This document shows, piece by piece, positions 2,163 through 51,583 of a stretch of DNA of 64,000 nt. Every line of letters begins with the position of its first letter. The stretch's first letter is position 1. The stretch comes from Escherichia phage PP01. The translations under genes and the position numbers were made by a program. Location: sequence record NC_054930.1; one strand, 5' to 3'. The notes under the pieces were generated by a model. It did not search any database. It had not been told where the DNA came from and was given only the letters and a program-made list of their open reading frames with translations.

Positions 2163-2768
2163 GTGATTATTTCTAAGTTTGTTACAATAAAACCAAGAAA
2201 TCATTCAAAAATGTGGTCGACAATTCTGGGATATAAAGTATCATATCATGATACAGTATCTGTTCCAATAGAATTAATGCCAAAGAATAGTAATAAAATA
2301 GTTGACGCTAAATGTGATTTGTGTGGTATTAAATTTAGTAGAAGCATTCAGCTTTTAAATAGAACACCAACGCATGCATGTAGAAAATGTAGCATTAAAC
2401 AAGTTGCTATTAAAAATTCGGAAGTTCAATCTGGAATAAGTAGACCATGGCAAAGAGGTGATAAACATCCTCGATGGACTGGTAAAAGAAAAGAGTTTGC
2501 ATTATATGCTAGTAGAGTTCATTCTATAACTAAGTCAGCTAAAATAAGAAAAATCTGGTCAAAATGGCCAAATGCTGATAAAATAGGAGTGTGTGGCGTA
2601 GAAGGTGCTTACCAACTCGATCATAAAGTATCTATCAAATATGGATTTGATAATTTAATTCCGCCGGAAATTATAGCAAGCGTAAAAAATTTAGAAATAA
2701 TCACTTGGGAATCTAACCGAGAAAAATCAAAAAGAAATAGCGTAGATCTTTGGGATTTACTAGAATGA
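2163..2768 (+). CDS. Free-standing HNH-family endonuclease (putative homing endonuclease) with N-terminal Cys4 zinc-finger-like motif
   Basis: 201 aa; CDLCG...CRKC cysteine pairs; C-terminal LDHKVSIKYGFDN...WESNREKS fits the H-N-H signature; GTG start 6 nt after GAGGA; inserted between genes 18 and 19. Confidence 0.75.
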   Translation: MIISKFVTIKPRNHSKMWSTILGYKVSYHDTVSVPIELMPKNSNKIVDAKCDLCGIKFSRSIQLLNRTPTHACRKCSIKQVAIKNSEVQSGISRPWQRGDKHPRWTGKRKEFALYASRVHSITKSAKIRKIWSKWPNADKIGVCGVEGAYQLDHKVSIKYGFDNLIPPEIIASVKNLEIITWESNREKSKRNSVDLWDLLE

Positions 2769-7185: not shown

Positions 7186-8751
7186 ATGACTATCAAAACT
7201 AAAGCTGAACTTTTGAACAAATGGAAGCCATTACTGGAAGGTGAAGGTTTACCGGAAATTGCTAATAGCAAACAAGCGATTATCGCTAAAATCTTTGAAA
7301 ACCAGGAAAAAGATTTCCAGACAGCTCCGGAATATAAAGACGAAAAAATTGCTCAGGCATTCGGTTCTTTCTTAACAGAAGCTGAAATCGGTGGTGACCA
7401 CGGTTACAATGCTACTAACATCGCTGCAGGTCAGACTTCTGGCGCAGTAACTCAGATTGGCCCAGCTGTTATGGGTATGGTACGTCGTGCTATTCCTAAC
7501 CTGATTGCTTTCGATATTTGCGGTGTTCAGCCGATGAACAGCCCGACTGGCCAGGTATTCGCACTGCGCGCAGTATATGGTAAAGATCCAATCGCTTCCG
7601 GTGCTAAAGAAGCATTCCACCCAATGTATGGTCCAGATGCAATGTTCTCTGGTCAGGGTGCTGCTAAGAAATTCCCAGCTCTGGCTGCTAGCACACAAAC
7701 CGTTGTAGGTGATATCTATACTCACTTCTTCCAGGAAACTGGTACCGTGTATCTGCAAGCTTCAGCTGTAGTAACAATCGATGCTGGTGCGACTGATGCT
7801 GCTAAATTAGATGCCGAAGTTAAGAAACAAATGGAAGCTGGTGTACTGGTAGAAATCGCTGAAGGTATGGCTACTTCTATCGCTGAACTTCAGGAAGGTT
7901 TCAACGGTTCTACCGATAACCCATGGAATGAAATGGGCTTCCGTATCGATAAACAAGTTATCGAAGCTAAATCTCGTCAGCTGAAAGCTGCTTACTCTAT
8001 CGAATTAGCACAAGACCTCCGCGCTGTTCACGGTATGGATGCTGATGCTGAACTGTCTGGTATTCTGGCTACAGAAATTATGCTGGAAATTAACCGTGAA
8101 GTTGTTGATTGGATTAACTACTCAGCTCAGGTTGGTAAATCTGGTATGACCCTGACTCCGGGTTCTAAAGCTGGTGTATTTGACTTCCAGGACCCAATCG
8201 ATATTCGTGGTGCTCGCTGGGCAGGTGAATCCTTTAAAGCTCTGTTGTTCCAGATTGACAAAGAAGCAGTTGAAATTGCTCGTCAGACTGGTCGCGGCGA
8301 AGGTAATTTCATTATCGCTTCCCGTAACGTAGTTAACGTTCTGGCTTCAGTTGATACTGGCATTTCTTATGCTGCACAGGGTCTGGCTACCGGCTTCAAC
8401 ACTGATACTACCAAGTCAGTATTTGCTGGTGTTCTGGGTGGTAAATACCGCGTATATATCGACCAATATGCTAAACAGGATTATTTCACTGTAGGTTATA
8501 AAGGTCCGAACGAAATGGATGCTGGTATTTACTATGCTCCATATGTAGCTCTGACTCCACTGCGTGGTTCTGATCCGAAGAACTTCCAACCGGTAATGGG
8601 ATTCAAAACTCGTTACGGTATCGGTATCAACCCATTTGCAGAATCCGCTGCTCAGGCTCCGGCTTCTCGCATCCAGAGCGGTATGCCTTCTATTCTGAAT
8701 AGCCTTGGTAAAAACGCTTACTTTAGACGTGTATATGTTAAAGGTATCTAA
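7186..8751 (+). CDS. 23: Major capsid protein gp23
   Basis: 521 aa; N-terminus MTIKTKAELLNKWKPLLEGEG. Confidence 0.98.
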   Translation: MTIKTKAELLNKWKPLLEGEGLPEIANSKQAIIAKIFENQEKDFQTAPEYKDEKIAQAFGSFLTEAEIGGDHGYNATNIAAGQTSGAVTQIGPAVMGMVRRAIPNLIAFDICGVQPMNSPTGQVFALRAVYGKDPIASGAKEAFHPMYGPDAMFSGQGAAKKFPALAASTQTVVGDIYTHFFQETGTVYLQASAVVTIDAGATDAAKLDAEVKKQMEAGVLVEIAEGMATSIAELQEGFNGSTDNPWNEMGFRIDKQVIEAKSRQLKAAYSIELAQDLRAVHGMDADAELSGILATEIMLEINREVVDWINYSAQVGKSGMTLTPGSKAGVFDFQDPIDIRGARWAGESFKALLFQIDKEAVEIARQTGRGEGNFIIASRNVVNVLASVDTGISYAAQGLATGFNTDTTKSVFAGVLGGKYRVYIDQYAKQDYFTVGYKGPNEMDAGIYYAPYVALTPLRGSDPKNFQPVMGFKTRYGIGINPFAESAAQAPASRIQSGMPSILNSLGKNAYFRRVYVKGI

Positions 8752-8777
8752 TCTCTAACGATAGAAACACAATTTTA

Positions 8778-8800
8778 GGGAACCTTCGGGTTCCCTTTTT
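8778..8800. terminator. Hairpin GGGAACC-UUCG-GGUUCCC followed by T5, between convergent genes 23 and segD
   Basis: 7-bp stem, UUCG loop, U-run. Confidence 0.7.
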
Positions 8801-9471
8801 CTATTTTATACGATAGCAATCAGGCATATCATCCGCATTTATCCAATTGCGAATAGTTTTAGGACTAACTTTAAAATGCTCCGCTGCGTAATCAGGATTA
8901 TCAAATTTAACGCCCTTTATACATATTGGAATAAATTTTTTAATACCACCAAGTTTTTCAGAAATAGCTTTACGGTGTGAAATCGATATAGGTTTATTTT
9001 TTCGTGGATGAACATGTGTTTTATAATATTCATTGCGCCCTTTAACTCGCTTCGCAATAGTTTCATCAGATTGCTTAACGCCTGTTTTTGCCTTTGATAT
9101 TTTTCGTTTAGCTTCCACAGTCATTCCTTCTTTTGTTCGTATTGATAACATATTACGATATGAAGGATCTTGCAAATGAACTATAACTGGATTTCCTCTG
9201 CCACCAATAGCAGCATTATAGGTATCAGTTCTCATAACGAATTCCTCATTGACTAGTAAAGCTTCCATTTTATACATCTCCTCAGATGAGGAGAAAGAAT
9301 AAAGAATTTCTTTTTAAAGTTATGAATACCATATTTTTTGATGGATTTTTTGATGTTTACGCCAGAACCCATATAACCATCGTTTTCGTCAAGAGTAGCA
9401 TGAGCTCCGATGTAAATTTTTCCATTGATGATATTAGTAATTTGATATATTAAATATTTCATTTTAAACAT
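8801..9471 (-). pseudogene. segD: GIY-YIG homing endonuclease segD, split by a -1 frameshift in an A5 tract (N-terminal ORF to 9253, C-terminal ORF 8801..9277)
   Basis: N-terminal part has [18 protein letters not shown]...YMGSG (GIY-YIG); restoring one A at about 9311-9316 fuses ...[30 protein letters not shown]... into a 223-aa protein, the remembered T4 SegD length. Confidence 0.75.
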
Positions 9472-9484
9472 CGCTCCGTTTGTA

Positions 9485-9522
9485 TATGAATATAATATCA
9501 TATTACTTTGGTCTTGTAAATA
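9485..9522 (-). promoter_or_regulatory. Early-type promoter for segD (TTTACA, 17 bp, TATTAT)
   Basis: Read on the minus strand upstream of the segD start. Confidence 0.45.
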
Positions 9523-9526
9523 ACTT

Positions 9527-9534
9527 TATAAATA
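9527..9534 (+). promoter_or_regulatory. Late promoter TATAAATA for gene 24
   Basis: Exact TATAAATA about 28 nt upstream of ATG. Confidence 0.7.
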
Positions 9535-9561
9535 GTATTATATTTCAACAAGGAAAATACA

Positions 9562-10845
9562 ATGGCTAAAATCAACGAACTTCTGCGCGAATCAACCACA
9601 ACGAATAGCAACTCAATCGGTCGCCCAAATCTCGTTGCTTTGACTCGCGCTACCACTAAATTAATATATTCTGACATTGTAGCAACGCAAAGAACTAATC
9701 AACCTGTTGCTGCTTTTTATGGTATCAAATACCTTAACCCAGACAACGAATTTACATTTAAAACTGGTGCTACTTACGCTGGCGAAGCCGGATATGTAGA
9801 CCGAGAACAAATCACAGAATTAACAGAAGAGTCTAAATTAACTCTCAATAAAGGCGATTTATTCAAATATAATAATATCGTTTATAAAGTATTAGAAGAT
9901 ACTCCATTTGCTGATATTGAAGAAAGCGACTTAGAGTTAGCTCTTCAGATTGCAATTGTTCTTTTAAAGGTTCGTCTATTTTCTGACGCAGCGTCAACAA
10001 GCAAATTTGAAAGCTCTGATAGTGAAATTGCGGATGCTAGATTCCAGATTAATAAATGGCAAACCGCGGTTAAATCTCGTAAACTTAAAACTGGCATCAC
10101 AGTTGAATTAGCGCAAGATTTAGAAGCAAATGGATTCGATGCTCCTAATTTCTTGGAAGATTTGCTTGCAACTGAAATGGCAGATGAAATCAATAAAGAT
10201 ATTCTGCAGTCTTTGATTACAGTGTCAAAACGCTATAAAGTTACAGGAATTACTGATAGTGGATTCATCGATTTGAGTTATGCATCTGCACCTGAAGCGG
10301 GTCGTTCATTATATCGAATGGTATGTGAAATGGTTTCGCATATCCAAAAAGAATCAACTTATACAGCAACGTTCTGTGTTGCTTCAGCTCGTGCCGCTGC
10401 GATTCTTGCTGCATCAGGTTGGTTAAAACATAAACCAGAAGATGATAAATATCTTTCACAAAATGCCTACGGGTTCTTAGCTAATGGTTTACCGCTTTAT
10501 TGCGATACTAACAGTCCATTAGATTATGTAATCGTTGGCGTAGTAGAAAATATCGGCGAAAAAGAAATTGTTGGATCAATTTTCTATGCTCCGTATACAG
10601 AAGGTCTCGACTTAGATGACCCTGAACATGTAGGTGCATTTAAAGTTGTTGTTGATCCAGAAAGCTTACAACCGTCTATCGGTTTATTAGTTAGATATGC
10701 TTTATCAGCAAATCCTTATACCGTAGCAAAAGATGAAAAAGAAGCAAGAATAATTGATGGTGGAGACATGGATAAAATGGCGGGTCGTTCAGATTTGTCT
10801 GTTTTATTAGGTGTTAAATTACCAAAAATTATTATTGATGAATAA
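9562..10845 (+). CDS. 24: Head vertex protein gp24
   Basis: 427 aa; gp23-like fold region; synteny. Confidence 0.95.
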   Translation: MAKINELLRESTTTNSNSIGRPNLVALTRATTKLIYSDIVATQRTNQPVAAFYGIKYLNPDNEFTFKTGATYAGEAGYVDREQITELTEESKLTLNKGDLFKYNNIVYKVLEDTPFADIEESDLELALQIAIVLLKVRLFSDAASTSKFESSDSEIADARFQINKWQTAVKSRKLKTGITVELAQDLEANGFDAPNFLEDLLATEMADEINKDILQSLITVSKRYKVTGITDSGFIDLSYASAPEAGRSLYRMVCEMVSHIQKESTYTATFCVASARAAAILAASGWLKHKPEDDKYLSQNAYGFLANGLPLYCDTNSPLDYVIVGVVENIGEKEIVGSIFYAPYTEGLDLDDPEHVGAFKVVVDPESLQPSIGLLVRYALSANPYTVAKDEKEARIIDGGDMDKMAGRSDLSVLLGVKLPKIIIDE

Positions 10846-10874: not shown

Positions 10875-11882
10875 TTAGCTCACCAACTCAATCCAAGCTG
10901 GACGAAGTACATCTTGTACCATTTTAACTAATTCCTTTTTAATCAAAGAAGGATTATCTGCTTGAGTTAGAGTAATACCTTCACGAGAAGTTTCTTCCAA
11001 AATATCTTGAACAGTTAGCCCCATCACCTTTCCAAAATCCTTTGGACCAATTTCGCCAATTTTAGAAATAACGTTATTTACGCGGTTTAGTGTAACGTAA
11101 CAAGCTAAAATTCCAACCAATTTGTTATCAGCTTCTGATAGTTCAACTTTAGCTTTAATAGGCTTATCAGACTTTTTCTTTTCACTAAATTTAGAGTTCT
11201 TGCATTTAATCGCTACACGAGCACCGTTTGGCAGCCATTTAGGGAAACAAGGCTTCAGAACATAACCTTCTGCAGTATTATCACCAATAACATTAGCATC
11301 AAATACACAATTATTTGCTTCGACAAGGTCTTCCGATGCCGTAACGTTATAAGCGGCTAAGACGGAATCAAGGTCGTTTGGAATCATGATAAGAGCATCA
11401 AATGTTCCACGTCCAAGCATTGGTGCCATTTTAAAACCAAACGTATTACAGAAATCTTGCATTTCGTAATCACTCATGTAATAAGTATCACCGCTTTCCG
11501 TGTTTATGATGATATCGAATACATAGAAATCTTTTTCACCGTAGTCAACACCTTTCTGAATTCCACCACCAGCGAATTCACCAAAGACTTGATATGTCAC
11601 CGGCACTGAAGTTGAAATACTGTCCATGACTTCTTGAACGCCTTTAATAGCTTTATCATACTTTTTGAGTACTATTTCATAGCCATAAAAATCTTCTGCT
11701 GGAAGAATAGGGCCAGTACGTTTAGCGCAAGTTACTTTATCACGCTCAATAATCAATGAGAAATTTGTACCATGAATCTTTTCACGAGCTACCCACTCCC
11801 CACCAGTCAATCCCAAGCTATAAAGTTTTTCAATAAATTTAGAGTTGTAATGATTTTCAAGACTGCTATACTTTTTAAACAT
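10875..11882 (-). CDS. rnlB: RNA ligase 2
   Basis: 335 aa; N-terminus [16 protein letters not shown]; nucleotidyltransferase motif I KIHGTN. Confidence 0.93.
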
Positions 11883-11891
11883 AATTAATCC

Positions 11892-12170
11892 TCAAAATGT
11901 AATTTCTAACCAATCACCATCACGCTGATCACTATTGACTTTAAAGCTGAATCCTTCTTTTCTCAGCCAATCACCAATTTCTTCAGTAATCAATTTATCA
12001 CGAGCAATACAATAATAATTAAAATGTGTTTTACCTTGTTCAGCTGCTTTATTAGCAAGTTCCGAAAAATCTTTAATAAAACATTCTAGCTTAAACTGTT
12101 TACTTTTGAATGCTTTTTCGCGTAATTGATTAGCAAAAGATTCATTTTCATAAAGATCATACTGTTCCAT
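11892..12170 (-). CDS. 24.2: Hypothetical protein (T4 24.2 position)
   Basis: 92 aa ORF; synteny. Confidence 0.7.
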   Translation of the reverse strand: MEQYDLYENESFANQLREKAFKSKQFKLECFIKDFSELANKAAEQGKTHFNYYCIARDKLITEEIGDWLRKEGFSFKVNSDQRDGDWLEITF

Positions 12171-12372
12171 TTTTCACCTTTTTATTGATATGTCTTTTTC
12201 TATAGACAACTTTTTCTCGAGTTTCAAATTTATTCTTAGCAGTCATAGCTCGAGCCCATAATACAGCCACTTCTTTTGCCTGTAAGTTCAATTCACGAGC
12301 AATTTCAATGAATGACTTTCCAGACTCATGGAGTGTAAACACCACAACCTCAGTTCTCATAATCAATCTCAT
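12157..12372 (-). CDS. 24.3: Hypothetical protein (T4 24.3 position)
   Basis: 71 aa ORF; synteny. Confidence 0.65.
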   Translation of the reverse strand: MRLIMRTEVVVFTLHESGKSFIEIARELNLQAKEVAVLWARAMTAKNKFETREKVVYRKRHINKKVKNGTV

Positions 12373-12442
12373 GTTATCGAGTTGATGCCATTATATACAC
12401 CGTTTTCTGATTGTGTTTTATGTGCTTTCAAAATGAAGAAAG

Positions 12443-12456
12443 GGGCCGAAGCCCCT
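12443..12456 (-). terminator. Hairpin GGGGC-UUCG-GCCCC (minus-strand reading) just after the hoc stop
   Basis: Inverted repeat seen. Confidence 0.5.
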
Positions 12457-12460
12457 GAGA

Positions 12461-13879
12461 TTATGGATAGGTATAGATGATACCAGTTTCTAAAGCAGTT
12501 TTATGAATGATGTATCCATTGCGCGATTCTTGAACATCAACTTCTGGATAGTCTTTCATCATCTTCTGAAGAGTGTAACGATGCAAGTAGTATTTACTAT
12601 CTGGATCTTCAGTTTTCCAATCTTTACCTTCTTCAGTCATTTTTTGGATTTCATCCATAACCCACCAACCGCACCAGATATAAGCTGAGCTACGATGTGG
12701 AAGAGGATGAACATAAGGTAATTCACCTTCTGGTTCCGGAGCAACTTTATCAGTCACTTGAACTTGACCTGTGGCTTTAACTGTTTTACTATCATAGTCA
12801 GTTGCTGTAACGACAGCAGTAACTTCAATAGTTTGACTTCCAATAGATGATGTATCAACGGTGTATACATTAGTTGACCCTTCTACAGGAGAAGAATCTT
12901 TCTTCCATGAATACGTAATTTGTGCTTCTTCCGGAGCATCCGTAACGTTAGCAGTAAATGTAGCCGAAGCATCTTGCTGAACATTAATAGAAGGAGGAGT
13001 CAATGTAACCTGTGGATTCATTGTCTTCTTATTAACTGTCAATGATACTTCATTGGAAGTAACTTCCTTTTCATTATAATTTTCTGCAGTTACTTGGGCT
13101 ACGCATTTAATTCTTTTTACTCCACTTGTAGTTGGAGTATAGTTAAATGTAGAGTTAGTTTCTCCACCAACTTGTGAATCATCTACATACCACTGATACG
13201 TGGCAGACGCTCCATCGGGTTGAGAAGCTAAGGCAGCAGTAAATTGAACCGGAGTTCCAATTACTCCAGCAGCAGGACTAGCAGGAGTTACTGCCAAGGT
13301 AGTTGTCTGCGTCTTTTTATTAACCGTCAATGATACTTCATTAGAAGTAACGCTCAATGCATCATAATCTGTCGCAGTTACTTGAGCTACACACTTGATT
13401 TTTTTAACTCCGCTTGTGGAAGGAGTGTAATTGAATGTAGCGTCAGTTGCTTCGTCTACAGGAGAACCGTCAACATACCATTGATACGTAGCAGATGCGC
13501 CCGATGGCTGTGAAGCTAAGGCAGCAGTAAATTCAACGGCTGTTCCGATTACTCCTTCTGGAGGACTATTAGGAGTTACAGCTAAGGTAGTTGTCTGTGT
13601 CTTATTTTGAACTGTGATAGTTGTACTAATTTCAGCTGTTTCAGCTTCAGCTTCTGGAACTGTATTTGTTGCAACCACTTTAATAGTCTTTTGACCAGCA
13701 GGTCCTTTTAATACATAATTAAAGGTTGCTTCAGCTCCATCCTGTGGAACATTATCTACGCTCCAAGCATAGGTAATAGTTCCACCTCCAGTTTCACCAC
13801 TGGGTGTAGCAGTAAACTGCTTGGTTTCATCAATAACCCCTGTTGGTGTTTTAGGAGTTATATCAACTGTAAAAGCCAT
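12461..13879 (-). CDS. hoc: Highly immunogenic outer capsid protein Hoc, with four Ig-like modules plus the capsid-binding C-terminus
   Basis: 472 aa; N- and C-termini as remembered for T4 Hoc (376 aa); contains an extra ~96-aa Ig-like repeat. Confidence 0.93.
   Translation of the reverse strand: MAFTVDITPKTPTGVIDETKQFTATPSGETGGGTITYAWSVDNVPQDGAEATFNYVLKGPAGQKTIKVVATNTVPEAEAETAEISTTITVQNKTQTTTLAVTPNSPPEGVIGTAVEFTAALASQPSGASATYQWYVDGSPVDEATDATFNYTPSTSGVKKIKCVAQVTATDYDALSVTSNEVSLTVNKKTQTTTLAVTPASPAAGVIGTPVQFTAALASQPDGASATYQWYVDDSQVGGETNSTFNYTPTTSGVKRIKCVAQVTAENYNEKEVTSNEVSLTVNKKTMNPQVTLTPPSINVQQDASATFTANVTDAPEEAQITYSWKKDSSPVEGSTNVYTVDTSSIGSQTIEVTAVVTATDYDSKTVKATGQVQVTDKVAPEPEGELPYVHPLPHRSSAYIWCGWWVMDEIQKMTEEGKDWKTEDPDSKYYLHRYTLQKMMKDYPEVDVQESRNGYIIHKTALETGIIYTYP
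13034..13606 (-). repeat. Tandem in-frame duplication (2 x ~288 bp) encoding two near-identical Ig-like modules within hoc
   Basis: Protein residues 92-186 and 187-282 align closely (NKTQTTTLAVTP...SNEVSLTV twice); the DNA similarity is also visible. Confidence 0.85.
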
Positions 13880-13888
13880 AAGTTATCC

Positions 13889-14569
13889 TTATTTTAATGT
13901 TACGAAAGAAGAATTGCGTGTTTCACGAATTAGAACTGATCCGTCACGATTAATGTAGTAAATTAAGCTAAACAAAGTTTGATGCGCAGATGCATGTTCA
14001 AAACTAGTTGGGTGAGATTTCCAATTCGGAGTTTCAGCAATCCACTGGTAAATCCACCAAGGAACAGTGCAGAATCCTGGATTTTTTCCAATCAACTGAA
14101 GATTCGGACTAAAGTTTTCCGGAAGAGTGAATACAGACGGCTTTTCAGATTCAATAATCTCAGCTACAGCCTGTTCGAATTTTTCTTCAACAAAAGGAGT
14201 ATCTTCAATCAAAACATCGGTATTTTCGGGAATTTTATCCGTTTCTACTACTTCAATTTTAATGTCAGATTTAACCGGAGAATCAATCAGAAGTGCTGCT
14301 TCTGGATTGACCTCTTCATCGTCATATTTTAACCCCTCTGCAGCATCAGCAGCATCGATTAAGTCTTTAATAGATAACCCATCAGTCTCTGGCATAGGTT
14401 CATTAGCGAGCTTCTGGAGGGCTTCTTCAATATCAATAACGATATTATCAAAAGATTTATTCTTTTTGACCTTTATACCAAACTGTTCAGCATATTCAGC
14501 TAATTTAGCCTTAGCTTCTTTATTATCATCAAGAGCCTTCAGCTCTGCAATATAATCTTTATCTATCAT
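13889..14569 (-). CDS. inh: Inh, inhibitor of the prohead protease
   Basis: 226 aa; synteny between hoc and uvsW. Confidence 0.85.
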   Translation of the reverse strand: MIDKDYIAELKALDDNKEAKAKLAEYAEQFGIKVKKNKSFDNIVIDIEEALQKLANEPMPETDGLSIKDLIDAADAAEGLKYDDEEVNPEAALLIDSPVKSDIKIEVVETDKIPENTDVLIEDTPFVEEKFEQAVAEIIESEKPSVFTLPENFSPNLQLIGKNPGFCTVPWWIYQWIAETPNWKSHPTSFEHASAHQTLFSLIYYINRDGSVLIRETRNSSFVTLK

Positions 14570-14582
14570 AATATTTCCTCAG

Positions 14583-14590
14583 TATAAATA
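14583..14590 (+). promoter_or_regulatory. Late promoter TATAAATA for uvsW
   Basis: Exact TATAAATA about 29 nt upstream of ATG 14620. Confidence 0.65.
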
Positions 14591-14619
14591 TAGATATATT
14601 TATTACATGGTATTTAGAC

Positions 14620-16131
14620 ATGACTGACATTAAAGTACATTTTTACGATTTTAGTCACGTGAGAATTGATTGTGAAGAAAGTACATTTCATGAACTCCGT
14701 GATTTCTTTAGCTTTGAAGCTGATGGGTATCGTTTTAATCCGAAATACAAATATGGTCACTGGGATGGACGAATCCGTCTTTTAGATTATAATCGCCTTC
14801 TTCCATTCGGTTTAGTTGGGCAAATTAAAAAGTTCTGTGATAACTTTGGCTATAAAGCCTGGATTGACCCGCAAATTAATGAAAAAGAAGAATTATCAAG
14901 AAAAGATTTTGATGAATGGATTTCTAAATTAGAAATCTATTCAGGAAATAAAAGAATTGAACCACACTGGTATCAAAAAGATGCAGTGTTCGAAGGATTA
15001 GTTAATCGTCGTAGAATTCTTAATCTTCCAACATCCGCAGGTAAATCTTTAATTCAAGCTTTGCTTGCACGTTATTATTTGGAAAATTATGAAGGTAAAA
15101 TTCTTATCATTGTTCCAACAACTGCTTTAACAACTCAGATGGCTGATGACTTTGTTGACTATCGTTTATTCAGTCATGCAATGATAAAGAAAATCGGTGG
15201 TGGAGCATCAAAAGATGATAAATATAAAAATGATGCACCAGTCGTTGTGGGTACATGGCAAACTGTAGTAAAACAACCAAAAGAATGGTTTTCCCAATTT
15301 GGTATGATGATGAATGATGAATGCCATCTTGCTACAGGAAAAAGTATTTCATCTATCATATCGGGTTTAAATAACTGCATGTTCAAATTCGGTTTGTCTG
15401 GTTCATTACGTGATGGAAAAGCCAATATCATGCAGTATGTTGGAATGTTTGGTGAAATATTTAAGCCAGTAACGACTTCTAAATTAATGGAAGATGGGCA
15501 AGTAACTGAGCTAAAAATTAATAGTATTTTTCTTCGCTATCCTGATGAGTTCACTACTAAATTAAAGGGAAAAACTTACCAAGAAGAAATAAAAATTATT
15601 ACTGGACTCAGTAAAAGAAATAAATGGATTGCTAAATTAGCTATTAAACTTGCACAAAAAGATGAAAACGCTTTTGTCATGTTTAAGCATGTATCACATG
15701 GTAAAGCTATTTTCGATTTAATTAAAAATGAATACGATAAAGTTTATTACGTATCAGGGGAAGTTGATACCGAAACACGCAACGTAATGAAAACCTTAGC
15801 TGAAAACGGTAAAGGAATAATTATAGTAGCTAGTTATGGTGTATTTTCTACTGGTATTTCAGTTAAAAATCTGCATCACGTTATTTTAGCGCACGGTGTT
15901 AAATCTAAAATTATTGTATTGCAAACAATAGGTCGCGTATTACGTAAGCATGGTTCTAAAACAATCGCAACGGTCTGGGACCTCATAGATGATTGTGGTG
16001 TTAAGCCAAAATCTGCTAATACGAAAAAGAAATATGTTCATTTGAACTATCTTTTAAAACACGGCATTGATCGTATTCAGCGCTACGCAGATGAAAAATT
16101 TAATTACGTAATGAAAACAGTTAATTTATAA
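14620..16131 (+). CDS. uvsW: UvsW SF2 DNA helicase (recombination and repair)
   Basis: 503 aa; Walker A PTSAGKS and DECH box; synteny. Confidence 0.95.
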   Translation: MTDIKVHFYDFSHVRIDCEESTFHELRDFFSFEADGYRFNPKYKYGHWDGRIRLLDYNRLLPFGLVGQIKKFCDNFGYKAWIDPQINEKEELSRKDFDEWISKLEIYSGNKRIEPHWYQKDAVFEGLVNRRRILNLPTSAGKSLIQALLARYYLENYEGKILIIVPTTALTTQMADDFVDYRLFSHAMIKKIGGGASKDDKYKNDAPVVVGTWQTVVKQPKEWFSQFGMMMNDECHLATGKSISSIISGLNNCMFKFGLSGSLRDGKANIMQYVGMFGEIFKPVTTSKLMEDGQVTELKINSIFLRYPDEFTTKLKGKTYQEEIKIITGLSKRNKWIAKLAIKLAQKDENAFVMFKHVSHGKAIFDLIKNEYDKVYYVSGEVDTETRNVMKTLAENGKGIIIVASYGVFSTGISVKNLHHVILAHGVKSKIIVLQTIGRVLRKHGSKTIATVWDLIDDCGVKPKSANTKKKYVHLNYLLKHGIDRIQRYADEKFNYVMKTVNL

Positions 16132-18465: not shown

Positions 18466-18487
18466 ATTTTAGCTCCTTTATTTATCA

Positions 18488-33089: not shown

Positions 33090-33467
33090 TTAAATGTCAA
33101 ATTCGTTAAGAACTACATCAAAGATTGCTTCAAGATGCTCAGGTTTAGCTCTGTTACTCAGAATATGACGAATCCAAGTTTTAACCAGAAGCTTGCGATT
33201 AACGCCATTCCAACAAGGATGAGTACCTAAATCACGTTGACGGAAATCATCATCTAATGCGATTTTAAAGGAAGAACCTTCTTTCGTGATTGAAACCGTG
33301 ATGCCATTTTCAAATCGCATATAAACGTAGTTAGGAGTCATATACTGTTCAATTTCGCATACTGATCCATTTTGATGTTTCCAAAGGCAAATAGTATCAA
33401 TAGAACCTGCAATACCGTTAGAAACATATTTACGTTCAAAGTTGATGTAGTTCATTTTATTCTCCAA
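33090..33467 (-). CDS. Hypothetical protein (T4 30.5 position)
   Basis: 125 aa; an early-type promoter (GTTTACT..TATTAT) lies upstream at about 33480-33525. Confidence 0.65.
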   Translation of the reverse strand: MENKMNYINFERKYVSNGIAGSIDTICLWKHQNGSVCEIEQYMTPNYVYMRFENGITVSITKEGSSFKIALDDDFRQRDLGTHPCWNGVNRKLLVKTWIRHILSNRAKPEHLEAIFDVVLNEFDI

Positions 33468-39293: not shown

Positions 39294-39520
39294 TTATTTT
39301 TCTCAACCAATGATTGAATATAATCATGCAGGTCTTTAGATGCTTTGCCCCACTTATTTTGATATTCATTTTTGAGATTAGCACGTGATTGAGCTAATAA
39401 AACATCATTAGTTGGAGGTAAAGATTCTAATCGTTGAATCTGGCGTCCATAAATCATTGCAGCCATCTCAGATTCATAAATCAATCCTTTGAGATGTTCA
39501 AATTGATGCCATGAAATCAT
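39290..39520 (-). CDS. Hypothetical protein (pseT-region)
   Basis: 76 aa ORF. Confidence 0.55.
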
Positions 39521-42339: not shown

Positions 42340-43509
42340 TTAAAAATATTTTTTAAAACTCATCATAACTTTATCATCAACATCATTATCAATCTGTGCT
42401 ACAAGGTAAGATGACAGTTCTACTTCTTGCGGCGCGGATTGAACATTATCAGAATTAAGATATTCACGAATCCAAGGATATGGATGTTTAACCGGAGCAT
42501 CGGTAATTGGGCATGGAAGACCGCACTGTTTCATACGAGATACAGTTAAGTAATCAATAAAGCTCCACATGCTATTTGTATTTAATCCAGGAACATCACC
42601 ATCTTTAAATAAATGAACTGCCCAATCTTTTTCTTGACGGTTAACTTCCATGAAAATATCAACTGCTTCTTGTTCACACTCTTGAGCAATTTTAACCCAT
42701 TCATCACCGTCAGTGCCAAGTTGAAGTTGACGAATAATATATTGAGTGCCTTTAAGATGAAGTTGCTCATCGCGCGCAATGAACTTCATAATCTTAGCAT
42801 TACCTTCCATGATTTCCATGTTCTTATGGAAGTTAAAGGTACATGCGAAAGATACATAAAAACGAATAGCTTCCAATGCATTGATTACATGAAGGCAAAG
42901 ATAAAGAGATTTCATTAGTGCTCGTTTAGTACATTCAACAACTTTGCCTAACTCTTCTTTACGAAATCCTTCTGATAAAATTCCTTCATAATCTTCAACC
43001 GCATTCTGATATTCACGAGTCTTAACTAGAACATCATCATAATAGCGACCAATGGACTCGGCACGTTTCATAATAGCTTTATCTAATACAATCTCATCAA
43101 ATACCTTTGATGGATCAGTATAAAGATTTCGCATGATATGAGTATATGAACGGCTGTGAATAGTTTCACTAAAAGTCCATGTAGCAACCCATGTATCAAG
43201 ACTTGGGTCTGAAATTAATGACATAAGTACAGCAGACGGTGCACGACCCTGAATGCTATCCAAAAGTGATTGATACTTCAGGTTATTAGTAAAAATATCT
43301 TGCTGATACTGAGGAAGCTTGTTAAATTGTGCAGCATCCATCATCAAGTTTACTTCTTCAGGACGCCAGAAAAATGACAACTGCTTTTCAGTTAAATCTT
43401 CAAAAACTTTATGACGTTGAATATCATAACGCGCAATACCAAGACCTGAACCGAAGAACATAGGTTCTTTTAAAACATCAACTGGATTTGTATTAAAAAC
43501 TGTGCTCAT
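42340..43509 (-). CDS. nrdB: Ribonucleotide reductase small subunit, uninterrupted (no intron)
   Basis: 389-aa continuous ORF. Confidence 0.95.
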   Translation of the reverse strand: MSTVFNTNPVDVLKEPMFFGSGLGIARYDIQRHKVFEDLTEKQLSFFWRPEEVNLMMDAAQFNKLPQYQQDIFTNNLKYQSLLDSIQGRAPSAVLMSLISDPSLDTWVATWTFSETIHSRSYTHIMRNLYTDPSKVFDEIVLDKAIMKRAESIGRYYDDVLVKTREYQNAVEDYEGILSEGFRKEELGKVVECTKRALMKSLYLCLHVINALEAIRFYVSFACTFNFHKNMEIMEGNAKIMKFIARDEQLHLKGTQYIIRQLQLGTDGDEWVKIAQECEQEAVDIFMEVNRQEKDWAVHLFKDGDVPGLNTNSMWSFIDYLTVSRMKQCGLPCPITDAPVKHPYPWIREYLNSDNVQSAPQEVELSSYLVAQIDNDVDDKVMMSFKKYF

Positions 43510-43560
43510 AAATTTTCCGCTTAGTTAATAGATAGTGACTCGTCCGTGAGTCAAATTATA

Positions 43561-45825
43561 TCATAATTTACAGGATGAACAATCTTCAGCTTTTGGAGTT
43601 TCTATTTCATAATCATCAGTACCAGAACCATCACGGGTATTATGATAATAGAAATTTTTTCCGCCAAAATACCAAAAATACAAAAGGTCATCAATCATTA
43701 CAGACATTGGAACCTTTCCTTTTGGAAAAATCTGCGGGTCATAATATGTATTCGCTGAAGCTGATTGACATACCCATTTCAGCATAATAGCTACCTGCGT
43801 AAGATAAGGTTTATTACCTTTCTTAGCTAATTTCCATGTATAATCATAGAGGTCTATGTTATGTTCAATATTGGGCACGACTTGATTAAAGGAACCCTCT
43901 TTTGATTCTTTAACCGAGACTGGTCCACGTGGAGGCTCGATACCATTTGTACTGTTAGAAACTTGGGAAGATGACTCACATGGCATAAGTGCTGATAATG
44001 TGCTATTACGGATGCCAAAGAGCTTAAGGTCTTCCCGCAGCGCCGACCAGTCACAAACGTATTTTGGAGCTGCGATTTGATCAATCTTTTTATTGTACCA
44101 GTCGATAGGTAATTCGTCTCGAGACCAACGAGTGTCTGAATAATATTCGCAAGGTCCTTTTTCTTTGGCGAGCTTAATGGATGCTTTAATGAGTCCATAC
44201 TGTAGTCTCTCAAATAGTTCATGTGTTAAATCGTTAGCATCTTCATAAGAAGCAAAGTTACTTGCCAGCCAAGCTGCATAGTTAGTAACACCTACACCAA
44301 GATTTCGACGCTTTTTAGCTTTTTCTGCTTCAGGAACTGGATATCCTTGGTAATCCAAAAGATTATCAAGAGCACGAACTTGGACTTCTGCCAATTCATT
44401 AATTTTATCTTGGTCTTGCCAATCGAAGTTATCCAACACAAATGCAGATAACGTACACAATCCAATTTCAGCATCAGGACTATTCACATCATTTGTTGGA
44501 ATAGCAATTTCACAGCACAAGTTACTCTGACGAATAGGTGCCTTTTCACGAATAAACGGAGTATAGTTATTCGTATTATCAATGAACTGTACATAAATCC
44601 TTGCTGTTCCTGAGCGTTCAGTCATGAGCAATTCAAATAATTCACGAGCTTTAATACGCTTTTTACGAATATTAGGATCTTTTTCTGCTGCTTCGTATAA
44701 TTCACGGAAACGGTCTTGGTCTTTAAAATAAGAATAATAAAGCTCGCCACCCATTTCATGCGGACTGAACAAAGTAATGTAGTCGTTCTTTCCAAACCGT
44801 TCCATCATCAAATCATTCAGCTGGACGCCATAATCCATATGACGGATACGGTTTTCTTCTACACCTTTGTTATTTTTCAAAACGAGAAGATTTTCAACTT
44901 CCAAATGCCAAATAGGATAATAAGCAGTAGCAGCGCCGCCACGAATTCCGCCCTGTGAACATGATTTAACAGCAGTCTGAAAATGTTTCCAAAAAGGAAT
45001 AACCCCAGTATGACGCACTTCACCTGTGCCAATCTTAGAACCTTCGGCACGAATCATACCAACGTTAATGCCGATTCCAGCTCGTTTAGAAATATACTCA
45101 ACAATTGAAGCAGAAGCCTTATTGATAGACTTCAGCGAATCACCTGCCTCAATAACAACGCATGAACTAAATTGCCGAGTCGGAGTACGACATCCAGCCA
45201 TAATAGGAGTTGGCAATGAAATCTGTCGAGTAGATACTGCTTCATAAAAACGGATAACGTGTTTTAATCTATCAACAGGTTCATCTTGATGCAATGCCAT
45301 TCCAATAGTCATAAATGCAAACTGTGGAGTTTCATAAATTTGACCAGTGGTTTTATCTTTAACGAGATATTTTTCTTTTAATTGCATCGCCCCGGAATAA
45401 GTAAATTCCATATCCCGCTCATGCTTAATTTTTGATTCTAAAAATGTAATTTCTTCTGCTGAATATTTTGACAACAATTCAGGGTCATATTTACCTTCAT
45501 TTACGCAGTAAGAAATATGGTCAATAAATGAACGTGGTTCATACTGCCCATAAACATGCTTACGAAGAGCGAACATTAAACAGCGCGCAGCTACGTATTG
45601 ATAATCAGGCTCTTCAACTGAAATAGAATTCGCAGCAGCCTTAATGACAATAGTCTGAATGTCATCAGTTGTCATTCCATCACGGAGATATGATTTAATA
45701 TTTTCATATAATTCATAAGGATCTACAGATGTTCCTTCAGCTGCCCAAGATAAAACTTTAATAATTTTTTGCGGGTCAAAGCTTTGAGAAACACCACTAC
45801 TTTTGATAACATTAATTAATTGCAT
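43561..45825 (-). CDS. nrdA: Ribonucleotide reductase large subunit
   Basis: 754 aa; synteny. Confidence 0.96.
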   Translation of the reverse strand: MQLINVIKSSGVSQSFDPQKIIKVLSWAAEGTSVDPYELYENIKSYLRDGMTTDDIQTIVIKAAANSISVEEPDYQYVAARCLMFALRKHVYGQYEPRSFIDHISYCVNEGKYDPELLSKYSAEEITFLESKIKHERDMEFTYSGAMQLKEKYLVKDKTTGQIYETPQFAFMTIGMALHQDEPVDRLKHVIRFYEAVSTRQISLPTPIMAGCRTPTRQFSSCVVIEAGDSLKSINKASASIVEYISKRAGIGINVGMIRAEGSKIGTGEVRHTGVIPFWKHFQTAVKSCSQGGIRGGAATAYYPIWHLEVENLLVLKNNKGVEENRIRHMDYGVQLNDLMMERFGKNDYITLFSPHEMGGELYYSYFKDQDRFRELYEAAEKDPNIRKKRIKARELFELLMTERSGTARIYVQFIDNTNNYTPFIREKAPIRQSNLCCEIAIPTNDVNSPDAEIGLCTLSAFVLDNFDWQDQDKINELAEVQVRALDNLLDYQGYPVPEAEKAKKRRNLGVGVTNYAAWLASNFASYEDANDLTHELFERLQYGLIKASIKLAKEKGPCEYYSDTRWSRDELPIDWYNKKIDQIAAPKYVCDWSALREDLKLFGIRNSTLSALMPCESSSQVSNSTNGIEPPRGPVSVKESKEGSFNQVVPNIEHNIDLYDYTWKLAKKGNKPYLTQVAIMLKWVCQSASANTYYDPQIFPKGKVPMSVMIDDLLYFWYFGGKNFYYHNTRDGSGTDDYEIETPKAEDCSSCKL

Positions 45826-46142
45826 AAGTCCTCAACTTGAAAATCGTCTTTAAACAATCGGTTAACTATATGAGCTATTATATCACCATGACACGGCTTT
45901 GGTTTACATGTGCATCCTAGCCTCATTCCACGTAAAGGCTCTAAATGTGCTTTAGTTATTTCTCCGGATTTAATTCGACGTATAAAATCTTTTTTAAATA
46001 ATTCAATGGCAGCCTCCCGGCTGCCAGCATCTTTACCGACGTAATTTCCCCAAAATGTACCGCGGTGAATATTAACATCAAAGTCGGATTTATATTTATT
46101 CACTACCCGGCATAGACGGCCCGCGCGGTGATAATTCAGCAT
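45816..46142 (-). CDS. Small protein with C-x-C...P-C-H-G-D motif (nrdA.1 position)
   Basis: 108 aa; ...[18 protein letters not shown]... Confidence 0.65.
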
Positions 46143-46371
46143 ATTGTTTTTCCGTCAAAACAGTAATATCGTAGTAACAGTCAGAAGAAGTTTTAACTGT
46201 GGAAATTTTATTATCAAAATACTCACGGGTCATTTTATGAGTATAATATTTTTTACCATAAATGATAATAGGCTGATTTGGTCCTGGAACTTCTAACTCA
46301 CTTGGGTTAGGAAGTGTAAAAAGAACGGCACCAGAAGTATCTTTAAATCGTAAAATCATATATCCTCTCAA
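46096..46371 (-). CDS. Hypothetical protein (nrdA.2 position)
   Basis: 91 aa ORF; start uncertain. Confidence 0.55.
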
Positions 46372-46382
46372 TTAAATTAAAA

Positions 46383-47243
46383 TTATACCGCCATCTTTCC
46401 TTTAATTGGCGGGTGAGATACATAGTTGTTAAGAACGAAATCTTTAGGTCTAAGTTTAAGAACATATTTTAATTGTTCTTTAGTAGAAAGATATCGGAAT
46501 TTATAAGGTAGACCACTTATTACCAGCTCACAAAGCTCTTTAGGTTCACGCCTCAAAATTTCTTTACACTGTTCTACGTGATTCATATAGATATGAGTAT
46601 TACCACCAGAAAATATCAAATCTCCTGGAATAAGATTACACATCTTAGCTACAATATGAACTAACGTAGCATATGATGCAATATTAAATGGAAGACCGAG
46701 AAAAACATCTACCGAACGTTGATACCACTGCAAATCCAAATAGCCATTACGCACATTAAACTGATAGAACATATGACAAGGCGGTAATGCCATATATTTA
46801 AGTTCAGCTGGATTCCATGCTGAAACAATTTGACGCCTATCATTTGGCAGTTTTTTAATACGATCAACAACTTCTATAATTTGGTCTACACCACCAAAAT
46901 CACGCCACTGTTTTCCATAAATTGGACCAAGTTCACCGCTATGATACCCTAAATCTTTTGCCTGATTTTCGTAATTTTCATCCCAAACTGTTTTGCCTTG
47001 AATTAATGAATCGTGCTGAATTAATCGTAAATCATTGACATTTGTGCTTCCTGATAAAAACCAAAGCAGCTCAGCAATGCAAGCTTTCCAGGCGAGCTTC
47101 TTAGTTGTTACCGCAGGAAAACCTTTAGTTAAATCCCAGCGTAATTTAGTACCAAACAAAGCAATTGTTCCTGTGCCTGTTCGGTCATCGGTTTCATAGC
47201 CATTTTCAAAAATGTCTTTAATTAAATCTTGGTATTGTTTCAT
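46383..47243 (-). CDS. td: Thymidylate synthase, uninterrupted (no group I intron)
   Basis: 286-aa continuous ORF; N-terminus MKQYQDLIKDIFENGY; active-site PCH. Confidence 0.97.
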   Translation of the reverse strand: MKQYQDLIKDIFENGYETDDRTGTGTIALFGTKLRWDLTKGFPAVTTKKLAWKACIAELLWFLSGSTNVNDLRLIQHDSLIQGKTVWDENYENQAKDLGYHSGELGPIYGKQWRDFGGVDQIIEVVDRIKKLPNDRRQIVSAWNPAELKYMALPPCHMFYQFNVRNGYLDLQWYQRSVDVFLGLPFNIASYATLVHIVAKMCNLIPGDLIFSGGNTHIYMNHVEQCKEILRREPKELCELVISGLPYKFRYLSTKEQLKYVLKLRPKDFVLNNYVSHPPIKGKMAV

Positions 47244-49443: not shown

Positions 49444-49540
49444 ATTATTTTCCTCTTTAATCATCAGCAGTATTGCCGATAGTTGTATAGTACCATGGAA
49501 GGACAAGGATGTAAACAGTTTTGTGAAAAATTTTTAAATT

Positions 49541-49587: not shown

Positions 49588-50496
49588 TTAAAGGTCATTC
49601 AAAAGGTCATCCAGGTCCGTGTCATCAGCACTAGATGAACTGCTAGAGCTTGAGCTCATAAAATCATCTTCAGTTTTTGTATTGAAGTCATCAACATTGA
49701 ATGCATCCAAATCATCAGCAACTTTATCAGCTTTCTTAGCAGCAGTTGCAGCGGCACCGCCCATCACAGCAGTTCCCATAACTTGACCGAATTTAGTATT
49801 CAGTTCTTCAAACGATTTGAATTTATCTTTAGAAGTCATTTCAGAAAGGTCAACCATTTGTTCGAACAGTTCTTTCTGGAAAGATTCATCGTCAATGTTT
49901 GGAATCGCAGATTGATTCAGGAATTTAGATTCATCGTAGTTACTAAATCCGGAAACTTGTTTAACTTTCAGTACAAAGTTAGCACCTTCCCACGGGCAAG
50001 TTACATCAACCGGAGTTTCACCCATTTCGACATCAACCGCAATCATTGCATTGATTTTATCCCAGATTTTCTTACCGAAACGGTATTTAAATACTTTACC
50101 TTCGTTTTCTGGAGCAGCTGGGTCTTTTACTACAAGAATGTTAGCCCAGTAAGAAGTTTTACGTTTAACAAGACCGTACTCTTTATTGTCAGTGTTGTAC
50201 AGATCATTTTTACTGATGTACTGACATACTGGGCAAGAATCGTAATCACCGTGGGTAGATGAACAGTTTTCAATATACCATTTACCATTTTTCTTGAAAC
50301 CGTGATTTACAAGAATTGCGAATGGTGCTTGTTCATCATTTTTAGACGGAAGAAAACGAATTACTGCTTGACCGTTACCCGCATTGTCGAGTTTCAGTTT
50401 CCACTCGCCTTTATCTTCAGAAGAAAAACCACCTTTATTTCCAGCCAGTTTAGCCATTTGTGCAGCGAGTTCAGCAGTAGATTTACGTTTAAACAT
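49588..50496 (-). CDS. 32: Single-stranded DNA-binding protein gp32
   Basis: 302 aa; N-terminus [17 protein letters not shown]; acidic C-terminus with a poly-Ser run. Confidence 0.97.
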
Positions 50497-50565
50497 TTTT
50501 ATTTCCTTTTTAATTTAATTAACAGTTGGTGCTATGACGATGTATGACCTCATAGCTGGTCAGTG
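50497..50565 (-). promoter_or_regulatory. Gene 32 autoregulatory translational operator (5' leader with pseudoknot plus A/U-rich gp32 binding region)
   Basis: Minus-strand reading GCUAUGAGGUCAUACAUCGUCAUAGCAC...UUAAUUAAAUUAAAAAGGAAAUAAAA-AUG matches the remembered T4 operator. Confidence 0.7.
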
Positions 50566-50595
50566 AGATAATTATAATTTATTTATAATAAGCAA

Positions 50596-51249
50596 TTAAT
50601 ACTTACAAGATTTCACAGTTTCAATAAAAACTTTTTTAGCTTCCTGTGAATCGATATTTAAAATTTTTCTATAAGCTTTTAACTTTATAGAATAATTGTT
50701 CCAAACTAAATTATCAGTTTGTTCATCATGTTTATCAATTATATTTAAAAATGAATCAAGCAAGATAAACGTTTCAAACGAAATTATGTTCGACTGAAGC
50801 AGTTTAAAAATATAACTTGATTGAACCTTTGGATTATATTCAAAGATTTCTTTAAAAGCAGAAACTTCAACTTTTTTACTAAAATAATAAATGTTGCGAA
50901 TATCTTCTTCAAACTTAAATTTAATTTGCTTTAAGCGTCCGATATATTCACGATAAAACACAAGTGCATCAGCGTCAGAGATGTCACCAATCCAAGCATC
51001 TTGGTTAGCAACAAGATTGCTTATAAAGATTAAAGCAAGTTCCTTTAATTTATATTTTTCTGATAACTTCTGGAAAAAATACTTATCCCTTCGCTTTTGA
51101 TAAGCGGCATCAGACACCCGCATGCACCAATTATACTTAATTACATCATACTTTCCATTCATATGTTGTTTTATCATTAAGTATAATTTATAAACTGATT
51201 TACCATCAATATATCTTTCACCACCAGCAGGCATGCGGAGTTTAATCAT
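50596..51249 (-). CDS. 59: Helicase loader gp59
   Basis: 217 aa; synteny. Confidence 0.93.
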   Translation of the reverse strand: MIKLRMPAGGERYIDGKSVYKLYLMIKQHMNGKYDVIKYNWCMRVSDAAYQKRRDKYFFQKLSEKYKLKELALIFISNLVANQDAWIGDISDADALVFYREYIGRLKQIKFKFEEDIRNIYYFSKKVEVSAFKEIFEYNPKVQSSYIFKLLQSNIISFETFILLDSFLNIIDKHDEQTDNLVWNNYSIKLKAYRKILNIDSQEAKKVFIETVKSCKY

Positions 51250-51259
51250 AGTAGAAAAT

Positions 51260-51583
51260 CTAATGTATTAGTTTTTCACAACGAACAACAGAAGGACGTA
51301 AAAGATTTTCGTCAATGGCTTCTGACTGAATTTTTTCAATTATACCCGAAGGAATAAATTTAGCAAATTGAGTTTCAGGAATAGAATTTTCTTCTAAGAA
51401 TGCTGTTGTAGCTTCAAGATAACTCATTCCAAACTCTTCTACCATTTTTTCAATAATAAATCCATTTTCTTGGCGGTCAAGAAGCTTTGCTATTTCATCC
51501 TTTTCTTTCTTAATTGAAAGTTCTTTTTCTGAAAGACCGGTCTCATCGACCGGACGAATATCATTTAGAGAAAACTGTGTCAT
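51260..51583 (-). CDS. 33: Late transcription co-activator gp33
   Basis: 107 aa from ATG 51583 (the ORF-track start 51592 is TTG); synteny. Confidence 0.8.
   Translation of the reverse strand: MTQFSLNDIRPVDETGLSEKELSIKKEKDEIAKLLDRQENGFIIEKMVEEFGMSYLEATTAFLEENSIPETQFAKFIPSGIIEKIQSEAIDENLLRPSVVRCEKLIH

Follow-up and report, generated by a model that had tools for sequence, protein, structure and literature searches.

The segD locus, as it stands in the 64,000-nucleotide stretch of DNA that was analysed (the 'window'), raises a straightforward question: is a homing endonuclease gene that reads in two different frames in the process of decay, or was a single base lost from the sequence rather than from the phage? 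The window is a piece of a Tequatrovirus (T4-like) genome that extends from gene 18 to arn, and the closest deposited genomes are approximately 96-97% identical to it over 25 kb. Within it, segD, a gene of the T4 type for a free-standing GIY-YIG homing endonuclease, occupies positions 8801..9471 of the minus strand (671 nucleotides here, versus 672 in its relatives) and adjoins gene 23, encoding the major capsid protein (7186-8751, plus strand), and gene 24, encoding the vertex protein (9562-10845, plus strand). This placement between the two genes, on the strand opposite to both, agrees with a review of T4 mobile elements that likewise places segD antisense to these two neighbours (PMC2988022).

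An earlier sequence-only reading of the window had called the gene segD, and that identification holds. At the DNA level the locus is 98-99.8% identical to that of T4, RB18, T6 and approximately 50 other records (99.1-99.8% for T4), and the addition of one A to the interrupted run gives a 223-residue product that is identical, over its full length, to the SegD proteins of RB18 and of T4 (AAD42657.2; AF158101.6 106561-107232), the latter encoded at the same locus. The T4 and RB18 genes are both annotated as 672 nucleotides, or 223 residues, which is the length that the earlier reading had given for T4 SegD, and their ATG start codon matches position 9471 of the window. In a tblastn search of the window, RB18 SegD was split over two high-scoring segment pairs (frames -2 and -1), and identity in the larger one is 100%, a similarity that is far beyond chance. 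Judged by its sequence, position and orientation, the gene is T4 segD and represents no new kind of element. The difference from T4 lies at codons 53-54, where T4 carries six consecutive As, and an intact gene, while the window carries five and a broken frame; the possibility that T4 segD is itself split in the same manner was checked, and it is not.

As previously proposed, the N- and C-terminal parts of the gene were found in different frames, as two minus-strand open reading frames at 9253..9501 (82 residues, when counted from the most upstream ATG) and at 8801..9277 (158 residues). The break corresponds to the run TTTAAAAAGAAA at 9311..9315 of the minus strand (five Ts on the plus strand), after codon 54, where the minus strand of the window reads AACTTTAAAAAGAAATT; the run had been placed at about 9311-9316, which is the right site, and its exact span is 9311-9315. 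In an alignment of nine sequences (the window with RB18, T4, T6, FL33, BCH953P2, PYPS2T and two T4 mutant clones), the column at the break holds A6 in all eight of the relatives, which bears out the claim of a single-base loss within an A run. Besides that missing A, the window and RB18 differ over 801 aligned nucleotides by only one synonymous T>C change. No exact copy of the segD sequence of the window occurs among 51 full-length records: most of these are longer by one base, and the shorter ones have other deletions.

As written, therefore, the gene lacks an uninterrupted open reading frame that would carry the GIY and YIG motifs together with the Glu and Asn residues and the DNA-binding domain, since the frame is broken between them. 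The N-terminal fragment (9253..9471, minus strand) comprises 72 residues, of which 54 are native, and carry the GIY and YIG motifs, and 18 are out of frame, before a TAG codon. Its open frame reaches upstream to the ATG at 9501, at which the sequence-only reading had begun the protein; that codon is merely the most upstream ATG of the frame, and the start is instead the annotated ATG at 9471 (MFKMKYL), or possibly the one at 9462 (MKYL). The C-terminal open reading frame (8801..9277, minus strand) corresponds to SegD residues 66-223 and contains a NUMOD3-like stretch, a C-terminal helix-turn-helix, and the residues E76 and N86. A second in-frame ATG lies within it at 9268, nine nucleotides after a GAGGAG sequence. 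That sequence is Shine-Dalgarno-like, precedes the internal ATGs, and doubles as the 3' arm of an inverted repeat, CTCCTCATCTGAGGAG (9278..9293, minus strand; identified in the sequence and by RNA folding), which is also present in intact relatives.

The earlier division of the gene into a GIY-YIG part and a C-terminal part was correct as to there being two pieces and incorrect as to their boundary, which does not separate the catalytic part from the DNA-binding part. In intact SegD the GIY-YIG domain spans approximately residues 5-84 (Pfam matches cover 5-76 and 33-84), and to judge from these profile matches it is the catalytic domain that the frameshift interrupts. Since the break lies inside that domain and precedes the E76 and N86 equivalents of the catalytic residues, neither piece could be a nuclease. 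An intact relative scores 27.8 bits against PF19835 (cut-off 25) and 19.2 bits against PF01541 (cut-off 22.6), while the N-terminal fragment of the window alone scores 24.6 bits, just under the cut-off; both fragments strongly match PHROG 314, 'homing endonuclease'. A search of SegD against the sequences of the PDB gave no match.

A further point of reference is I-TevI, the GIY-YIG homing endonuclease of the T4 td intron, with which SegD shares its domain order and aligns from end to end by BLASTP (E = 4e-08). In that alignment I-TevI residues E75 and N90, which we take from the I-TevI literature to be catalytic, correspond to SegD E76 and N86. The two proteins nonetheless differ in that they are only 25% identical, and in that I-TevI is encoded by an intron while SegD is free-standing.

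The sequence-only reading had left the choice between decay of a homing endonuclease gene and a sequencing error undecided; the evidence favours error over decay, given a like loss in gene 33 and 49 of 49 natural segD copies in frame. The explanation that we prefer, with a probability of roughly 70%, is that the segD split is a homopolymer under-call in the sequence or its assembly and not a mutation of the phage. Under this explanation segD would be an ordinary copy of the intact T4 type, the shortfall in its A6 run would be an under-called homopolymer, and the As missing from segD and from gene 33 would share one technical cause. The phage itself would then make a normal 223-residue SegD, in which a GIY-YIG nuclease domain at the N-terminus is followed by a DNA-binding part consisting of NUMOD3 and helix-turn-helix elements at the C-terminus.

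Gene 33 (51260-51583, minus strand), which encodes a late-transcription co-activator, serves as an internal control for this explanation, because it contains a second loss from A6 to A5 that is unique to the window (51272..51276, minus strand). Its minus strand reads GTGAAAAACTAAT in the window versus GTGAAAAAACTAAT in RB18, T4 and 4E10, and the end of the protein is changed from RCEKTNTLDFLL to RCEKLIH, each followed by the stop codon, such that the alignment with RB18 gp33 ends eight residues early and the clamp-binding tail TNTLDFLL gives way to LIH before the chain ends. From the matches to 497 Tequatrovirus records, 60 rows were sampled evenly; every one of them has A6 in gene 33, one base more than the window, and the best match differs from the window by that one gap alone. 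The C-terminal tail of gp33 constitutes the epitope that binds the gp45 sliding clamp, and is essential (PMC2988020). A phage that was propagated should therefore not carry this lesion, which implies that at least one homopolymer under-call of this type exists within the window; the A5 run of gene 33 is almost certainly a sequence error. The same type of error is thus found elsewhere in the record, at a position where the phage would not survive a genuine mutation, and the segD indel likewise lies in a homopolymer and is confined, among close relatives, to the window.

How often such errors occur across the window was examined with translated coding sequences from two relatives, 94 from RB18 and 86 from 4E10, that were searched against it. 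Counterparts were found for 85 of the 94 RB18 sequences, among which only segD lay in two frames and only gp33 was short, and for 82 of those from 4E10, among which only gp33 was flagged; segD and gene 33 are accordingly the only frameshifted genes among the RB18 and 4E10 counterparts in 64 kb. A base-level comparison of the window with RB18, T4 and 4E10 gave a similar picture: each reference contains approximately 65-72 A/T runs of six or more, approximately 57-62 of which have the same length in the window, and the only run contractions unique to the window are the two coding ones, in segD and gene 33. Other isolated one-nucleotide indels were considered as further errors and rejected. The length differences at a run of four Ts (18467-18470) and at an A5 run (49526-49530) are common to other phages, while the one at 39297-39301 lies in a gene that is of full length and identical to that of RB18; the differences at 33459 and 12459 fall between genes. 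Because these differences are natural or intergenic, the two coding contractions stand out as a pair. A generally error-ridden assembly was also ruled out, only two coding sequences being broken. Given that at least one of approximately 70 long A/T runs was mis-called, and that intact segD contains five A6 runs in the alignment, the chance of an error falling in segD amounts to a few percent, which is comparable to or above the rate of natural segD frameshifts (none in 49), and the segD lesion has precisely the signature of that error.

That latter rate was obtained from a protein search for SegD, which returned 51 close copies; all 49 of those from natural isolates keep one frame throughout, and the T4 SegD protein is encoded without any change in 30 records. 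The only copies that are split belong to two mutant clones of laboratory T4, T4_7t1 and T4_583L (OL964745.1 and MZ375356.1), and result from a deletion of two nucleotides that they share. These clones resemble the window in that their segD lies in two frames and is annotated as two open reading frames or as a truncated one, and differ from it in that their lesion is a two-nucleotide (TA) deletion located approximately 130 nucleotides further downstream and outside any homopolymer. Two other alterations of segD were observed in the course of these comparisons. The PYPS2T group (MH809535.1) carries an in-frame deletion of 12 nucleotides between two CATCAAAAAAT repeats, and a 1-kb Logan contig (SRR25448477) shows a clustered change in segD, with the loss of one nucleotide 12 nucleotides downstream of the site in the window; this frameshift is possibly itself noise.

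An under-call is favoured, in addition to the loss of the same type in the essential gene 33 and the 49 of 49 natural copies that are in frame, by the absence of any other lesion in segD, the repaired product of which is identical to T4 SegD. Between positions 8560 and 9743 the missing base is all that separates the window from the intact allele in DRR277896 (Logan assembly), so that where a pseudogene would show several lesions or relaxed constraint, the locus shows one lesion and no other difference from that allele. It is favoured as well by the failure to find the A5 allele anywhere else, in IMG/VR, JGI metagenomes, GTDB genomes or protein clusters. A 31-mer spanning the A5 run had no exact match in IMG/VR, JGI metagenomes or GTDB genomes; an exact-pattern scan for the A6 allele found it in one JGI metagenome contig and in neither IMG/VR nor GTDB genomes. 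The 158-, 69- and 72-residue fragments and the truncated gp33 had no exact match in an index of called genes, and comparison of the 72-residue fragment with 5.8 billion protein clusters yielded no identical allele, only the different frameshift of the 1-kb Logan contig.

Several considerations weigh on the other side of the balance. Errors are rare in this sequence, such that the prior probability per site is only a few percent. In gene 23, the lineage of the window carries synonymous changes that are peculiar to it, which indicates that it has had time to mutate. Runs of six As are, reportedly since the work of Streisinger, classic hot spots of spontaneous frameshift in T4. Finally, segD is dispensable and selfish, and a null mutation in it would be tolerated.

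These considerations lead to the strongest competing explanation, which has an appreciable probability, though a clearly lower one than an under-call: that the split is a genuine null mutation of very recent origin, produced by replication slippage in the A6 run, and represents the first step in the decay of a homing endonuclease gene. The 72-residue stub, which lacks the catalytic Glu and Asn, would then be made in place of any nuclease, and a C-terminal DNA-binding fragment of 155-158 residues might be expressed from the internal GAGGAG sequence and ATG. The variable presence of segD fits such a loss, in that the phages shown with an identical gp24 or RnlB protein (ten for each) all lack segD, and the gene is therefore dispensable; so does the existence of other disrupted alleles (the two-nucleotide deletion of the two T4 laboratory clones, the 12-nucleotide in-frame deletion of the PYPS2T group and the frameshift of the Logan contig), as does the intactness of the genes of the window other than segD and gene 33. 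Frameshifted homing endonuclease genes are, moreover, common in other phages (PMC10448857), which a real segD null would match. According to the title of a study by Sokolov et al. 2018 (Virology 515:215), as cited in PMC10448857, SegD does not drive the homing of its own gene, in which case the loss of segD would be unsurprising. Against a real mutation stand the like lesion in the essential gene 33, which is not plausibly real, the complete absence of frameshifts among the 49 natural segD copies, the lack of a second lesion or of excess substitution in the gene, and the occurrence of the A5 allele nowhere else in the collections searched.

A third explanation, which we regard as very improbable, also holds the A5 allele to be real, and proposes that it is partly rescued by a compensatory -1 shift of the ribosome, in which tRNA-Lys would slip from AAG to the overlapping AAA, with GAA read next, and a low level of SegD containing the sequence NFKKEIL would be produced. 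The frame arithmetic, as checked on the sequence, does allow this, because the loss of the base leaves AAA_AAG as codons of the zero frame. The minimal site of -1 ribosomal shifting in E. coli is A_AAG, and dnaX has the longer form A_AAA_AAG (PMC5009743); the segD run matches the former, and a -1 slip there would regenerate the native protein. A stable hairpin is also predicted by RNA folding downstream of the shift site. If the allele were real, the A_AAG created by the deletion could thus allow a trace of authentic SegD to be made, and the earlier remark that A5 is too short for efficient slippage, which stands for RNA polymerase, does not extend to the ribosome, for which AAA_AAG contains this minimal site.

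Several observations nevertheless speak against this explanation. When compared with the heptamer X_XXY_YYZ, only the A-site tetramer A_AAG of the segD sequence U_AAA_AAG fits, and the U that precedes the A run would prevent full re-pairing of the P-site tRNA. Stimulators of shifting are usually spaced 5-9 nucleotides from the shift site; the CTCCTCATCTGAGGAG hairpin begins 16 nucleotides past the AAG, beyond that spacing, and is present in intact alleles as well, and no Shine-Dalgarno-like stimulator was seen in the sequence upstream of the site. The two-frame arrangement is conserved in no relative, all of the natural ones being single-frame. The locus differs from dnaX in its lack of a full heptamer, of properly spaced stimulators (none were seen) and of conservation, and nothing indicates that -1 recoding is in use at segD. 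In gene 33 a -1 slip in the A run would likewise restore EKTNTLDFLL, but the phage would probably not grow on gp33 at a level of a few percent. The weakest reading of all, and a scarcely credible one, takes both A5 alleles to be real and the phage to depend on low-level -1 slippage (at U_AAA_AAG in segD and GAA_AAA_C in gene 33) for SegD and for the essential gp33; it would represent a natural instance in which a T-even phage compensates for indels by recoding.

The consequences differ according to which of these explanations is correct. An artefact would be of use mainly as a flag of sequence quality, and would call for both segD and gene 33 to be either corrected or marked in the annotation as sequencing-derived frameshifts; if the split is real, it would offer an early snapshot of the inactivation of a homing endonuclease gene. 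The split itself matters little biologically. The more general lesson is that, before a gene is taken for a pseudogene, the essential genes in its record should be inspected for a like signature of error.

The element in which segD resides is a cassette of approximately 790 base pairs (8763..9549), present here and in the phages that possess segD, in place of which the segD-less relatives have approximately 60 nucleotides between the two flanking genes. The sites that serve as markers linked to the cassette extend from 8755 to 9559 and end at the stop codon of gene 23 and the start codon of gene 24, which indicates that the element moved with almost no flanking coding sequence. No tract of co-conversion was found around segD, since no linked marker lies outside 8755-9559 and the coding sequence on either side is mosaic. 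Within the cassette, a G+C-rich hairpin terminator (8777..8796, plus strand), as read from the sequence, would be common to gene 23 on the plus strand and segD on the minus strand. A match to a sigma-70-like promoter (TTTACA, a spacing of 17 nucleotides and TG-TATTAT; 10 of 12 positions), identified by consensus only, lies at 9492..9520 of the minus strand, approximately 20 nucleotides upstream of the segD start. In a 2010 review, segD was described as having no promoter of its own identified and a ribosome-binding site only two nucleotides from its AUG (PMC2988022). A T4 late-promoter motif, TATAAATA (9527-9534, plus strand), is located 28 nucleotides upstream of the gene 24 ATG and inside the cassette, which thus seems to carry the late promoter of gene 24; such a candidate promoter would favour retention of the cassette.

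Additional observations concern other mobile elements of the window. A 201-residue open reading frame between genes 18 and 19 (2163-2768, plus strand), which is missing from RB18, belongs by similarity with phrog_5104, a family of unknown function (E = 6e-83), shows a weak match to a homing endonuclease PHROG (E = 4e-04), and has no Pfam match; it may be another free-standing mobile gene. Several mobile elements of T4 are missing from the window (13889-16131, 42340-47243 and 49588-51249): inh adjoins uvsW, without segE; genes 32 and 59 adjoin one another, without segG; and nrdB and td are unbroken, with nrdB abutting nrdA, such that no introns, I-TevI, I-TevIII or mobE are present. Beyond gene 24, the region 10875-13879 is a local mosaic, in that the gp23 and gp24 proteins are 100% identical to those of RB18, RnlB is 83% identical and Hoc 78% identical, with Hoc comprising 472 residues in the window versus 376 in RB18; the RnlB and Hoc types found in the window are common to phages that lack segD.
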